DNA from: a virus
Taxonomy: Duplodnaviria > Heunggongvirae > Uroviricota > Caudoviricetes
Strand: one strand, 5' to 3'
Virus record (IMG/VR): IMGVR_UViG_2718218131_000002
Length of the DNA stretch: 64,000 nucleotides
The position numbers were made by a program, and so were the translations under genes. The notes beneath the pieces were generated by a model. It worked only from the letters and a program-made list of their open reading frames with translations, was not told where the DNA came from and did not search any database. Below, in pieces: positions 53,803-64,000 of this stretch (position 1 is the first letter of the stretch; each line of letters starts with the position of its first letter).

Positions 53803-55053
53803 GTGATGACCGGATTCAAAATTATGAGCAGAGCACTTAACAAGCTGAGCGATACACAGCTAAGGAAAATCAACGGCACACCCGCCCAAAAAACAGCCTT
53901 TCTTAATGACGGTGGAAACTTGAGCGTCAGGCATTCAACCAGCGGCCTTTTAACCTGGTATTTCACTTACAGGGCCGGAACGGGAAGGGGGGCATCACCG
54001 GAACGCATTAAGCTGGGAAATTATCCTGATCTGAGCCTGAAATCAGCCAGGGAAAAAGCCGCCCAGTGTCGCGCATGGCTGGCTGAGGGGAAAAATCCAC
54101 GTCATGAGATGAATTACACCGTACAGGAAGCGTTAAAGCCTGTAACGGTTGGCGATGCGCTCACCTACTGGCTTGAGTCGTACGCAAAGGAAAACCGTGT
54201 GGATTATGACCCACTGAAAAAGCGGCTAAATAATCACGTAATACAGCACATTGGCCCTATGCCGCTGGATAAATGCGAGCTACGGCACTGGCTGGCCTGT
54301 TTTGATCGGGTGGCAAAGCAAGCCCCTGTTTCCGCCGGGTTCCTGCTACAGACATGCAAACAGGCGCTTAAGTTCTGCCGGAAGCGGCGCTATGCAATCA
54401 GCAACGTTCTTGATGATATGAGTGTGGCTGACGTTGGGAAAAAACCGGATATAGGCGAACGTGTCTTAAGCACCAAAGAACTGGGCCAATTATTGCAGGC
54501 ACTGGACAAAAAAATATTTTCCCCTTACTACGTCGCACTAATCCGCCTCCTGATTGTTTTCGGATGCCGGACAGTAGAACTGAGGTTATCGGAGATCGGC
54601 GAGTGGGATTTTACCGAAATGCTCTGGACCGTTCCGAAGGAGCACAGCAAAACGAAGGTGGCCATATTCCGGCCCATACCGGAAGCGATACTGCCGTTCA
54701 TCACGCAGCTGGTGGAGCAGAACAGGCACACGGGCTTATTGCTGGGGGAAGTGAAACAGGAAACCAGCGTGTCGCAGTACGGCAGATTAGTGCACAGGAG
54801 GCTTAAACACCCTCACTGGTCACTGCATGACATCCGGCGCACCTTTACAACGATGCTGAACGATTTAGGCGTGGATCCTCACGTCGTGGAGCAGCTTACA
54901 GGCCACCAGATGCCAGGAATGCAGCGAGTTTATAATCATTCCCGTTATCTGGATGCGAAACGCAATGCGCTGGATATGTGGGTGGAGCGGTTGGAGATAC
55001 TGGCGGGAGCACATGAAAACGTAACCACGCTACCAGTATCCAGAAGAAAATAA
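53803..55053 (+). CDS. int: Tyrosine recombinase / integrase of the satellite element (P4-type, DUF4102 N-terminus)
   Basis: N-terminal LNDGGNLSVRHSTSGLLTWYFTYR arm-binding motif; C-terminal catalytic region with HDIRRTF and a Y near the end; about 230 bp from roxA. Confidence 0.8.
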   Translation: MMTGFKIMSRALNKLSDTQLRKINGTPAQKTAFLNDGGNLSVRHSTSGLLTWYFTYRAGTGRGASPERIKLGNYPDLSLKSAREKAAQCRAWLAEGKNPRHEMNYTVQEALKPVTVGDALTYWLESYAKENRVDYDPLKKRLNNHVIQHIGPMPLDKCELRHWLACFDRVAKQAPVSAGFLLQTCKQALKFCRKRRYAISNVLDDMSVADVGKKPDIGERVLSTKELGQLLQALDKKIFSPYYVALIRLLIVFGCRTVELRLSEIGEWDFTEMLWTVPKEHSKTKVAIFRPIPEAILPFITQLVEQNRHTGLLLGEVKQETSVSQYGRLVHRRLKHPHWSLHDIRRTFTTMLNDLGVDPHVVEQLTGHQMPGMQRVYNHSRYLDAKRNALDMWVERLEILAGAHENVTTLPVSRRK

Positions 55054-55427
55054 TTTTTTTCGTGTTTTTTCAGTATGCGCATACTGGATAAGTGCACAGA
55101 TACAACGTGAAACAATACGCAACAACGTGAAACAACCACGAACAAGAGGCCAAAAAGTATACAGATTTATAAGTTGCTGATTTTTAATGATCAACTGGTT
55201 TTTTATACATTAGCGAATAACGCTTTAAATAGTGAGAAAAAAGGCATAAAACGAGATTTTATGCCTTTGCATAACACTGAATTAAAATATATTTTATTAA
55301 AATAACCCCGTTTCTGTAAAATACCCGCCACCAACATTTGCCAACTCTGAATCACCCTGACACAATCAGACACATCCCAACGCAATAGAACACGAAATAA
55401 CTCTTTAAGAAACGAAAGGGGGCAATA

Positions 55428-55616
55428 GTGTTAAGCACTGATCGGTTTATACGTGAAAAAGAATGCGAAAAGCTAACAGGCCTTAGCCGCTCATGCCGCT
55501 ACCGCCTGGAAAAGGCCGGACAATTCCCATCACGGCGTAAGCTGGGCGGTCGTTCCGTTGGCTGGTCTTTATCCGAAGTTCTGGCATGGAAGGACAGCTG
55601 CGAGGCAGTTCACTAA
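55428..55616 (+). CDS. alpA: AlpA-family phage regulatory protein (excisionase-like HTH)
   Basis: 62 aa LTGLSRSCRYRLEKAGQFPSRRKLGGRSVGWSLSEVLAW. Confidence 0.55.
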   Translation: MLSTDRFIREKECEKLTGLSRSCRYRLEKAGQFPSRRKLGGRSVGWSLSEVLAWKDSCEAVH

Positions 55617-55943
55617 TCAGGCTGGCGGCACACAGCCGCCACGCATCCACTAATACAGAGATCTAACCATGAATACTGGATATACGCCCGAACAGGGGCG
55701 GGGCTTCGTTCGGCCTGGTGAAACTGAAAAACAACAAAATCGCGGTTTTTCAGACATAAAAAAAGCGGCCCCGATAAGGAGCCGCCTTTCTGAACAATTA
55801 ACCTACTGCGCAAAAAATGAATCTGAGCAGGGGAATTATATCAGCCAGGTGACGAAGCGCCACAATTGCCGGATAACGGGCAAAGAAAAGGCCACCTGTC
55901 ACGGTGGCCAATGTGATCAGTGTGGTGGTTTGCTGGTGGATTG

Positions 55944-56123
55944 TCAGCCTTTTGGCACAATACCGCGCTGTTGTAATTCTTTACGGATTATTCGCTTTAT
56001 CCAGGCAGCAAGAGAATCATCGCCGTCCTGTTGTTGTGCTTTTTCCATCTTTTCCCGTAAGTCAGGATCTAAACGAAACTGGAACGGAGGATTACCACGC
56101 CTTTCGTTTTTGTGTGTTGACAC
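55944..56123 (-). CDS. Ribbon-helix-helix small DNA-binding protein (unlisted 59-aa ORF, GTG start)
   Basis: NPPFQFRLDPDLREKMEKAQQQDGDDSLAAWIKRIIRKEL; GAGGTG ribosome-binding site upstream. Confidence 0.4.
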   Translation of the reverse strand: MSTHKNERRGNPPFQFRLDPDLREKMEKAQQQDGDDSLAAWIKRIIRKELQQRGIVPKG

Positions 56124-56630
56124 GTTAATTACACCTCATGTAATGTATTTATGTGTAGTGACACATTACACACAATCAGCACAAAAAGCAAAGCCCCGCA
56201 AGTGTCGTTACCACTGGCAGGGCTTATAACCACAAACCGTTATGAGAGGTAGTTTTATGGCTGTAAGACAGCATACCCCACGCCTAGCGCACACACAAAC
56301 GGCCTTTGTGTGGCGTAATCGATTTCATGATTTCACTTTTCACAATCAGCCAGGCGGTCGGTTTTTGCCGGATTTAAGCCGCCGTGGGTATTTATCGACA
56401 AAATCTTCAAGGGCAAATTTTTCTGGTGGCACTAAGCGCGGCGCTGGTGGTGGTATTTTTGTTCTGGTTAGTTCTTCCTCAAGTCTGGCGCAGGCTTCTG
56501 ACTGCCTTTGCCGGATGATTTCATCATCTTGCGTTTGCGTGTCTTGTATTGGTGATAGTGTGTTGTTGGTCATGATACTGCCCTGTAAAGCAATGCGCCG
56601 TAGTACCTCACACCACGGCGCTAGTGATGG

Positions 56631-56810
56631 TTACTCCTGCTCTTTGGCCTTCCTGCGCTGGCGGCGTTTGATCTCGCCTTGCATTGACGCAATGATGAAT
56701 TGTGATGTGCTTTCGCCTGATTCTTTCACTAATTCCATGGCGTTTACTATTTCGTGTGGTACACGAGCCTTTAGAGCTTGTGATTTTGCGTTTGTTGTAC
56801 CCGTTGCCAT
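56631..56810 (-). CDS. Ribbon-helix-helix-like small protein (59 aa)
   Basis: MATGTTNAKSQALKARVPHEIVNAMELVKESGESTSQFIIASMQGEIKRRQRRK; AGAGGA ribosome-binding site. Confidence 0.4.
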   Translation of the reverse strand: MATGTTNAKSQALKARVPHEIVNAMELVKESGESTSQFIIASMQGEIKRRQRRKAKEQE

Positions 56811-62661: not shown

Positions 62662-62794
62662 TGCGCGTTTTCGCTATTTATGAGCCTTTTTCGGGTGCTG
62701 GTGGTGGTTTTGTTGTTCGCTCTATCTCTATGAATAAAAAGGAAAAGATAAAACCAATACACCAACCTGAAACATTACTTAAGTGGGGATATTG

Positions 62795-63337
62795 ATGAAA
62801 TCGTACCTGATGAACAAAAAAAACATGGCGCAAAGCTGCCGTGTAAGTGCGACAGCGTTCGACAAGTGGGGAGTGACTCCCGTTGAACGTAAAGGCCGCG
62901 AGGCGTTTTATGATGTTGCCAGCGTAATAGACAATCGGGTTAGCAATGCAATTAACCAGATTACAGACGACAAAGGCGAGATTGATAATGATGAACTTTT
63001 ACGAGTCAGGATCAGATTACTGACAGCACAGGCGGAGGCGCAGGAACTTAAAAACGAGCGCGATCGCGGTGACGTGATTGATACAGAGTTTTGCATGTAC
63101 GCGCTTTCAAAACTGGCGAGTCAGATTTCATCAATCATGGACAGCCTCCCGCTTACTATGCAAAGGAGCTTCCCACAGATGGCCCCCGCCATGCTGGATG
63201 GCCTGAAAAAAGAAGTTGTCAGAGCCTGTAACGCATGCACAAAACTTGATGAAAACATCCCGCGAATACTGTCCGATTATCTGATGGAAACTACCGGAAA
63301 TGTGCCTGATAAGTTTCAGCCGGATAAAGACAAGTAA
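62795..63337 (+). CDS. Nu1-like terminase small subunit encoded by the satellite
   Basis: C-terminal two-thirds parallel lambda Nu1 (LTAQAEAQELKNERDRGDVIDTEFCMYALSKLASQISSIMDSLPLTMQRSFP); N-terminal DNA-binding part divergent. Confidence 0.7.
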   Translation: MKSYLMNKKNMAQSCRVSATAFDKWGVTPVERKGREAFYDVASVIDNRVSNAINQITDDKGEIDNDELLRVRIRLLTAQAEAQELKNERDRGDVIDTEFCMYALSKLASQISSIMDSLPLTMQRSFPQMAPAMLDGLKKEVVRACNACTKLDENIPRILSDYLMETTGNVPDKFQPDKDK

Positions 63338-63348
63338 CGTAGCGCACA

Positions 63349-63630
63349 ATGACAGAAGCCGAACTACTGGGATTAATCCGCCGTGTTACCGGAATCAGCC
63401 AGCAGCATGACGAACAGGCCACGCAGCCGGACAGCGTGATCGCCGAAAATTACGTGCGTGTTGTTGCTGATGTAATGCGCCGTGATGGTATTGAGTTTAA
63501 CGGCGTGGATATGCGCGACATACGAATCAGAGTACTAGAGTTGCTGGCATACCGTCGACGCGTGGCGATGTATCAGGAGAGCGCGAAAAACACTTATCAG
63601 TGGAAGAAGCCGGAACGGCTGCGGCGGTAA
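63349..63630 (+). CDS. Hypothetical protein (93 aa)
   Basis: ORF following the Nu1-like gene where lambda would have terminase A; far too short to be a large terminase. Confidence 0.35.
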   Translation: MTEAELLGLIRRVTGISQQHDEQATQPDSVIAENYVRVVADVMRRDGIEFNGVDMRDIRIRVLELLAYRRRVAMYQESAKNTYQWKKPERLRR

Positions 63631-63639
63631 CTTGCTGAT

Positions 63640-63980
63640 ATTCCCGATAACGCAAAATTGCGTTGGCTGGCAAAGTGCAAAATTGCACGATGGCCTAACC
63701 CATTGATTATTTCGAAAACCTGCAATGCAGGAAATCGGGGAAGTAAGCCTAAGCTATTGATTCTTTCGGAAACCTCAATTTGAGGAAGTCGGCGCGGTAA
63801 CTCGCTGAACTTAAAGCAAAGCTCAAAATTGAGCTGGCTGAATAATCATTATGATTACGCAGATGATTAAGGAATGACCGAAGGCGGAAATTCGCCTGTG
63901 GTTGATGGGGGAGTTGCAGATCTGCAACTCGACCATGAAACTACGGAAACTACCCGTAGTTTGGGTAGTAAGAGTAACAC
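63640..63980. repeat. Array of short hairpin-forming palindromes with an A/T core (N3-5 AAAATT N3-5 type) embedded in longer direct repeats
   Basis: CGCAAAATTGCG, GCAAAATTGC, GCTCAAAATTGAGC, CCTCAATTTGAGG, GGCGGAAATTCGCC, TTGCAGATCTGCAA, CTACGGAAACTACCCGTAG; units GCAAAG..CAAAATTG..CTGGC recur three times. Confidence 0.5.
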
Positions 63981-64000
63981 CCAGATTTTGGGGCTTACTC

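Follow-up and report, generated by a model that had tools for sequence, protein, structure and literature searches.

Among the phage satellites of Gram-negative bacteria, the phage-inducible chromosomal islands (PICIs) have their prototype in EcCICFT073 of Escherichia coli (Fillol-Salom et al., 2018, 2019), which sits between roxA (ycfD) and phoQ at the published att core GGACATATTT and is packaged through RppA (c1503, 144 aa), a protein that binds the small terminase (TerS) encoded by the helper phage and redirects it to cosB on the island (PMC6739421). The features of the family have been published in several studies (PMC6092414; PMC6739421; PMC10085698; PMC10111431). The core of a PICI, according to the SatelliteFinder paper, comprises five components, namely an integrase, a regulator, a primase-replicase, a capsid-morphogenesis gene and a small terminase, and 97% of those elements in which the five occur together were from E. 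coli (PMC10085698); among the 29 reference Gram-negative PICIs, 21 have a capsid gene (PMC10111431). Here we analyse an island beside roxA at the end of a 64,000-nucleotide stretch of DNA (the window) that is recorded as virus sequence IMGVR_UViG_2718218131_000002. The island is very probably a complete, apparently functional classical Gram-negative PICI of the EcCICFT073/EcCIRM12579 family with the five 'type A' core components, and in the position of rppA it encodes a full-length TerS of the Nu1 family, next to a cosB-like region that differs from that of EcCICFT073.

The window comes from E. coli SLK172: positions 53600-64000 are 100% identical to the chromosome of this strain (NZ_CP017631.1), and the same stretch is 100% identical in seven further complete genomes. 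The sequence past the window end was taken from this identical chromosome, and the island junctions were defined against the empty roxA-phoQ site of K-12. In this way the att sites could be defined, and the complete island was found to measure 10,723 bp, integrated by a tyrosine integrase at the 3' end of phoQ. A first, model-made reading of the window (the original prediction) had let the element start at 53803 and run on past the window; it does extend beyond, ending at 64375 (375 bp past the window), but the true start is at 53643. Immediately 3' of the last island gene there are no phage genes, and in NZ_CP017631.1 phoQ, phoP and purB come next. The region thus does not continue into a morphogenesis module, and the view that it is not an ordinary prophage held. 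A 26-bp direct repeat, CGGTGTAGTTAATGGTGTAGTTAATT, is found at 53777 and again at 64268-64293, just inside attR; we considered it as the att sites and rejected it, as the empty site of K-12 puts the junctions further out, at GGACATAYTT. The GGTGTAGTTAAT repeats within both ends of the island, which EcCICFT073 also carries at both its ends, are probably arm-type sites of the integrase. An integration host factor (IHF)-consensus site lies about 20 bp from the attR core (22735-22747 in locus sequence L001).

Gene content was established from six-frame open reading frames (ORFs), Pfam and PHROGs scans and RefSeq annotation. Every ORF of the island is accounted for (Table 1), and its size fits the 10-20 kb range of PICIs. 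The integrase, AlpA, primase, iterons, SSB, capsid, decoration, cos and Nu1-like terS of the original prediction are all present and intact, at or within a few bases of where it had put them, so that the five core components and a specific attachment site are found together. That reading had also regarded the gene combination as unusual for an enterobacterial PICI. It is in fact standard for the family, as can be seen from EcCICFT073, EcCIRM12579, the capsid genes of the reference PICIs and the published core definition, and the kind of element is already known. The order E before D, likewise thought to be unusual, was the same in every relative examined, including the c1499-c1500 pair of EcCICFT073 (PMC6092414).

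The complete island contains no gene for a portal, protease, head-tail connector, HNH protein, large terminase (TerL), tail, or lysis/holin function in the ORFs, Pfam, RefSeq and PHROGs data, and by ORFs and RefSeq annotation it has none of the complete morphogenesis, lysis and immunity modules of a temperate prophage. Capsid-forming PICIs (EcCIEDL933; Alqurainy et al.) share with the island the int-alpA-replication backbone, a capsid protein and a TerS, but they are about 15 kb long, encode the protease, portal, head-tail connectors, HNH protein and TerL that the island lacks, and make their own small heads, stealing only tails. With none of these genes in its full sequence, the island does not belong to the capsid-forming class. 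The predicted capsid-encoding satellite is right as to the presence of a capsid gene, but a head of its own is unlikely by analogy with EcCICFT073.

The closest relatives occupy the same site. With EcCICFT073 the island shares the att core and the order int, alpA, variable zone (YlcI-like and Icd-like genes), DUF4222 gene, primase, ori, SSB, capsid, decoration, small gene, cos, packaging-specificity gene and 93-aa gene, as well as a lambda-type cosQ and cosN combined with a non-lambda cosB. The two integrases are 94% identical, and the 93-aa protein is 77% identical to the 93-aa protein encoded 3' of rppA in EcCICFT073. In contrast to EcCICFT073, however, the island has a different primase allele (48% identity) and no perC, an AlpA-like 127-aa gene replaces an unrelated 137-aa gene 5' of cos, there is one cos site instead of two inverted ones, and Rpp is missing, the 180-aa TerS taking the place of RppA along with a different cosB. 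EcCIRM12579 (Fillol-Salom et al., 2018, Table S1) and the identical island of O157:H7 also carry capsid, decoration and terS genes; their TerS is 84% identical to that of the island and is accompanied by the same cosB-like region, whereas the capsid protein is only 55% identical, a RepA-type helicase stands in place of the D5/P4-alpha-type primase, and perC is present.

The packaging region was examined next to that of the lambdoid prophage which occupies about 1-47 kb of the window and carries Nu1, A, W, B, C, D and E genes with a matching cosN. The island cosN, GGGCGGCGACCT at 62650-62661, has only one other copy in the window, the cos of the prophage at 21687, and over the cosQ-cosN block 61 of 66 bases, read off the printed sequences, match cosQ-cosN of the prophage, the similarity ending at the start of cosB. 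The cosB-like region of the island is unrelated to cosB of lambda and of the prophage, and to cos1 of EcCICFT073. The 110 bases that follow the cosQ-cosN block are common to the TerS-type islands of Nissle 1917 and O157:H7. All three TerS-type islands examined have this region in common, the Rpp-type island has a different one, and TerS and cosB thus vary in step, which at the sequence level supports a matching change of DNA specificity in the cos region. In the islands of CFT073, Nissle and O157, two inverted cosN sites flank rppA or terS (12559 (+) and 13298 (-) in L005; 11005 (+) and 11872 (-) in L006 and L007). The window island has the upstream one only, and its terS is separated from the next gene by a gap of only 11 bp. 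Lambda packages DNA of about 75-105% of 48.5 kb, and four copies of the island (~42.9 kb) therefore fit a lambda-sized head.

TerS aligns over its full length with Nu1 of the neighbouring prophage, with identities of 34% for the N-terminal 50 residues (DNA-binding), 55% for residues 72-127 and 33% for residues 128-167. We take residues 72-127 to correspond to the self-assembly domain of lambda Nu1. An earlier TerS profile that included lambda-like sequences was partly circular with respect to Nu1, and a profile of island-type TerS only was used instead; it matches residues 1-98 of lambda Nu1 in register (E 0.0026). The AlphaFold2 model has a beta-alpha-alpha-beta-beta-alpha N-terminus followed by long helices. 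Alignment and model together point to the layout of the Nu1 family, with a predicted winged-helix N-terminus, a predicted central self-association region and a predicted TerL-binding C-terminal end. Rpp, on the other hand, left little trace: none of the island proteins is similar to RppA, there was no RppC match in PDB, and for TerS and the 127-aa helix-turn-helix (HTH) protein the PDB searches, BLASTP and profiles gave only a weak in-register winged-helix alignment (hhalign probability 13%).

A set of 194-aa proteins (P0100-P0105) was considered as TerS of a helper phage and rejected, because their genomic context proved to be another PICI, next to clpS. This PICI (L012-L015, 8001-8585) has a ProQ/FinO-domain gene and lacks a capsid gene. 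Its TerS carries a C-terminal half nearly identical to that of the window TerS on a lambda-like N-terminal DNA-binding domain, and because of this junction the DNA-recognition domain of the island TerS proteins appears, from the sequences, to be swapped between islands.

Upstream of cos lie the homologues of lambda E and D. As predicted, the capsid protein is full length: it can be aligned end to end with E of the neighbouring prophage at 41% identity, and its PDB matches are 3BQW (E 1e-121, the best) and lambda gpE 7VI9 (E 4e-77). The former entry, titled 'putative capsid protein of prophage', is the counterpart of c1499, the EcCICFT073 capsid gene. The closest phage capsid is lambda E (41.8%), and no sequenced phage capsid belongs to the same lineage. 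The possibility that the capsid-like ORF might be a truncated remnant did not hold: among five alleles of the window type, the ratio of nonsynonymous to synonymous substitution rates (dN/dS) lies between 0.03 and 0.08 for nine of the ten capsid-gene pairs and at about 0.08-0.12 for the decoration gene in the pairs with measurable divergence. Both genes are intact in all genomes examined and annotated as complete in every listed match. Given the low dN/dS and the lack of disrupted copies, the two genes are, by these sequence measures, under strong purifying selection and maintained for some function.

What this function might be is not evident from EcCICFT073, where deletion of c1499 or c1500 changes neither transfer nor phage interference, no phage growth being restored. 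The two genes were dispensable with lambda, phi80 and resident prophages, and the packaged DNA was all phage-sized (PMC6092414). We found no later paper resolving their role in the literature searched. By analogy, the E-like and D-like genes of the island are probably not needed for building the transducing particle, and a gene pair so strongly conserved yet without a demonstrated role keeps some value.

Most likely, then, the TerS of the island reads the cosB of the island and recruits a TerL of the gpA type. By homology to EcCICFT073, a lambdoid helper phage would turn on alpA and the island would then excise, after which the P4-alpha-like primase-helicase would initiate replication at the TGTTCACC iteron origin 3' of its own gene. 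The large terminase of the helper would cut the concatemers at the lambda-type cosN of the island, and the DNA would be packaged into helper-built virions. In this process the divergent winged-helix N-terminus of TerS would read the island-specific cosB, while its Nu1-like central and C-terminal parts would recruit the gpA-type TerL of the helper. The E-like, D-like, cos and Nu1-like terS set is indeed suited to lambda-type cos helpers, as had been proposed. Such use of an own TerS would be the strategy of the pathogenicity islands of Staphylococcus aureus (SaPIs) transposed to a cos system: in pac-type SaPIs the own small terminase captures the large terminase of the helper, which is the same logic as proposed here, although the sequences are unrelated, packaging is by cos and not by headful, and no Ppi was detected in the island.

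Several observations weigh against this proposal. In the literature searched there was no experiment on the window island or on any TerS-type E. coli PICI, so that both recruitment of TerL and recognition of cosB, and hence every step, count as inferred. The TerS model is of moderate confidence only (pLDDT 69, pTM 0.29), and a fold search with it gave no significant match, the top being MerR-family winged-helix proteins (E >=0.16, that is, at least 0.16). The last 40 residues, the counterpart of the gpA-binding end of Nu1, are only 33% identical to those of the prophage Nu1, and compatibility with TerL of the neighbouring prophage is therefore uncertain. No helper can be named, the closest phage TerS (N15 gp1) being only 45.7% identical. 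Finally, dispensability of the E-like and D-like genes would not account for the strong purifying selection to which they are subject.

A rather different explanation would be that the island TerS co-assembles with the TerS of the helper through the conserved central region, and that the mixed oligomers redirect packaging and poison that of the phage, in an Rpp-like manner. The central region, being the part best conserved relative to Nu1, would be well suited to this, and EcCICFT073 requires the phage TerS. However, the absence of sequence similarity to Rpp and the complete Nu1-like C-terminus, which Rpp does not have, speak against it, and an autonomous TerS is more in keeping with the finding that some related islands have the same C-terminal half on a DNA-binding domain of lambda-like type. 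We consider co-assembly a serious though clearly less probable possibility than a TerS acting on its own.

It is also conceivable that the island builds its own head shell, if the E-like and D-like proteins were to assemble on the portal and scaffold of the helper into smaller or chimeric capsids holding one or two island genomes and filled by way of the own TerS and cosB. The intact, strongly selected head genes and the distinctness of their capsid lineage would be accounted for, and there are cited precedents, SaPIbov5 with its capsid homologue Ccm and PmCI172, in which satellite capsid homologues are linked to small capsids (PMC6092414). Like SaPIbov5, the island carries a capsid homologue, but small capsids are linked to those precedents and here there are the genes alone. 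The dispensability of c1499 and c1500 in EcCICFT073 and its phage-sized packaged DNA make an own head, which is unproven, unlikely by analogy, and genes for a portal, a protease/scaffold or connectors are missing from the island. We therefore hold this explanation to be improbable, more so than co-assembly; if true, the TerS-type PICIs so abundant in E. coli would stand, in function, between capsid-stealing and capsid-forming PICIs.

In 5,426 complete E. coli genomes, terS of the window type is found in 766 and the window capsid-decoration allele, intact, in 395, as compared with 97 for rppA/rppB. The back half of the island, from the primase to the 93-aa gene, recurs with a different integrase at tRNA-Pro in NCTC10444, so that modules are shuffled within the family. 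The nearest phage proteins being as distant as lambda E and N15 gp1, the capsid protein and TerS are, on sequence grounds, island lineages rather than recent captures. The element is thus one more copy of a catalogued family, which current satellite-finding tools would call a type A PICI. However, the E. coli PICI packaging that has been solved experimentally is that by Rpp, the rarer variant (97 versus 766 genomes), and we found no study of the variant with TerS and its own cosB in the literature searched.

The proposal of a phage satellite with a P4-alpha-like replication module was confirmed by the Pfam domains, the similarity to P4 alpha and the iteron origin. Over residues 145-595 (75% of its length) the primase-helicase shares 50.7% identity with P4 alpha, with no P4 match for the N-terminal 144 residues; the label 'P4-alpha-type' accordingly holds for the helicase and the origin-binding part. 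In the whole window TGTTCACC occurs 16 times where 2 copies are expected by chance, a number reached by no shuffle. The same motif is also the type I iteron of P4. Its position agrees with that of other PICI origins, which lie directly 3' of the replication gene (PMC6092414). LR881103.1 ('Escherichia phage vB_KppS-Ant', 16.5 kb), a record submitted as an induced phage and, judged by its size, probably a satellite rather than a phage, encodes a primase with 74.7% identity to that of the island.

These features raise the question whether the island is a P4-like satellite in need of a P2-type helper. P4 shares with the island the homologous helicase/origin-binding part of alpha, an AlpA-type regulator, an Icd-like small gene and cos-based packaging, and a tyrosine integrase is present as well. 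What defines P4-like satellites, however, is the presence of Psu, Sid and Delta (PMC10085698), and none of the three was matched among the ORFs in Pfam and PHROGs scans, all ORFs 3' of the origin belonging to other families. Moreover, cos is of the lambda type and TerS of the Nu1 type, neither being P2-type, and unlike P4 the island has its own TerS, capsid and decoration homologues, so that we regard a P4-like satellite as very improbable. Least probable of all is that the phage-type capsid, decoration and small-terminase genes beside an integrase are the leftover head genes of a decayed prophage, for the boundaries are precise against the empty site, all genes are intact with low dN/dS, the island has its own replicon and cos site, and the same compact architecture recurs with other integrases and at other sites, with its terS type in 766 genomes.

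Table 1. Features of the island, in window coordinates unless a locus sequence (L001) is named.
Feature	Position	Strand	Evidence or remark
attL core GGACATACTT, left island boundary	53643-53652		versus empty K-12 roxA-phoQ site
Tandem GGTGTAGTTAAT repeats	53777-53802	+	putative integrase arm-type sites
Tyrosine integrase	53824-55053 (alternative GTG start 53803)	+	Pfam Arm-DNA-bind_3 and Phage_integrase
AlpA regulator / excision factor	55428-55616	+	Pfam Phage_AlpA E 5e-18
YlcI/YnfO-family small Arc-like repressor, variable regulatory zone	55944-56123	-	RefSeq; phrog_228
Icd-like small protein	57006-57203	+	RefSeq; phrog_1743, phrog_29966
Hypothetical protein	57196-57516	+	phrog_15327
DUF4222 protein	57523-57822	+	Pfam E 6e-17
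Primase-helicase / replication initiator	57819-59636 (alternative start 57804)	+	Pfam D5_N, DUF5906, Pox_D5; phrog_864
Replication origin: nine exact TGTTCACC iterons, both orientations, and variant copies	59651-59871		
Hypothetical protein	59924-60169	+	phrog_1231
SSB-family protein	60166-60588	+	Pfam SSB E 4e-16
Lambda E-family major capsid homologue	60801-61847 (RefSeq start 60807)	+	Pfam Phage_cap_E E 4e-41
Lambda D-family head decoration homologue	61857-62198	+	Pfam E 4e-15
Second AlpA/excisionase-type HTH protein, 127 aa	62210-62593	+	Pfam Phage_AlpA E 1e-8; PDB 8C3T AlpA E 8e-11; phrog_2790
cos site: cosQ-cosN block 62618-62683, then island-specific cosB-like region up to terS	62618-62794	+	
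Full-length Nu1-family small terminase TerS, 180 aa	62795-63337	+	Pfam Phage_Nu1 E 7e-23; phrog_57 full length
Conserved 93-aa protein	63349-63630	+	phrog_1561
Non-coding 3' tail: array of ~50-nt units	63631-64000, on to ~64080 (L001 22032-22480)		arm repeats, then attR follow outside the window
attR core GGACATATTT	64366-64375 (L001 22767-22776), outside the window		overlaps phoQ stop codon

In the front part of the island, alpA lies 3' of int and is transcribed in the same direction, and the DUF4222 gene just 5' of the primase is kept in the islands of CFT073, Nissle, O157 and NCTC10444. An Rfam scan detected no C4 or isrK RNA (P4 CI-type) in the regulatory zone. Over the island as a whole the scan gave sub-threshold matches only, to manA (21.6 bits) and to R1162 antisense RNA (30.5 bits), with a cutoff of 55 for each. 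The weak R1162 match, at 56939-57013 (L001 15340-15414), sits just 5' of the Icd-like gene and overlaps its start.

With its lambda-type Nu1/A terminase and matching cosN, the neighbouring prophage is a candidate helper on packaging grounds, as far as can be told from its sequence. Against such a role, an IS21-family element interrupts its FI gene and ISApl1 its tail-fibre gene; the prophage probably cannot form plaques, but might still supply head and terminase proteins. Its insertion sequences are an IS3-family element at 20345-21558, just 5' of cos/Nu1, the IS21-family element at 29229-31536 and ISApl1 at 45528-46502. At the right end of the prophage, beside potB, lie espO and espK (46886-48583), type III secretion effector genes that are cargo typical of lambdoid prophages of the enteropathogenic/enterohaemorrhagic E. 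coli (EPEC/EHEC) type. The tRNA at 13949-14024, within an Ile-Arg-Arg tRNA cluster 5' of the late genes, is called tRNA-Met (CAT anticodon) by ARAGORN and tRNA-Ile in RefSeq.

Lastly, we looked at the non-coding tail of the island. In each unit of the array, TAAC-N4-TGAW (the IHF consensus WATCAANNNNTTR on the other strand) is followed, after a short spacer, by a dyad or hairpin whose position is fixed. The tail folds far better than shuffled sequence (z -9.3 for the + and -10.0 for the - strand), and Rfam gave only the sub-threshold manA match here. Units are also found in the island tails of CFT073, Nissle, O157 and NCTC10444, whatever the integrase, while the strict unit pattern had one match only across viral contigs. 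We compared 15 copies, 14 from five islands and one segment of HK620 roi: the dyad arms vary between copies yet stay complementary, with at least 8 different arm pairs among the 15, and the mean stem is 5.1 bp as against 3.0 bp in shuffles. One unit, 63745-63792 (L001 22146-22193), is 94% identical over 48 nt, in antisense, to the inside of HK620 roi (L016 1501-1548), and the segment that it matches, of the roi/antirepressor family, occurs in many lambdoid phages including HK620, H-19B and the Shiga toxin (Stx) phages. That the tail is a gene remnant was considered and rejected, as the other unit copies are not conserved at the protein level. Roi reportedly binds within its own gene at a site that adjoins one for IHF, and the matched segment lies in the part of roi with these sites. 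The tail might thus be an array of Roi/IHF-type sites, acting as a decoy or sensor for the Roi of the helper, or a structured RNA antisense to roi.

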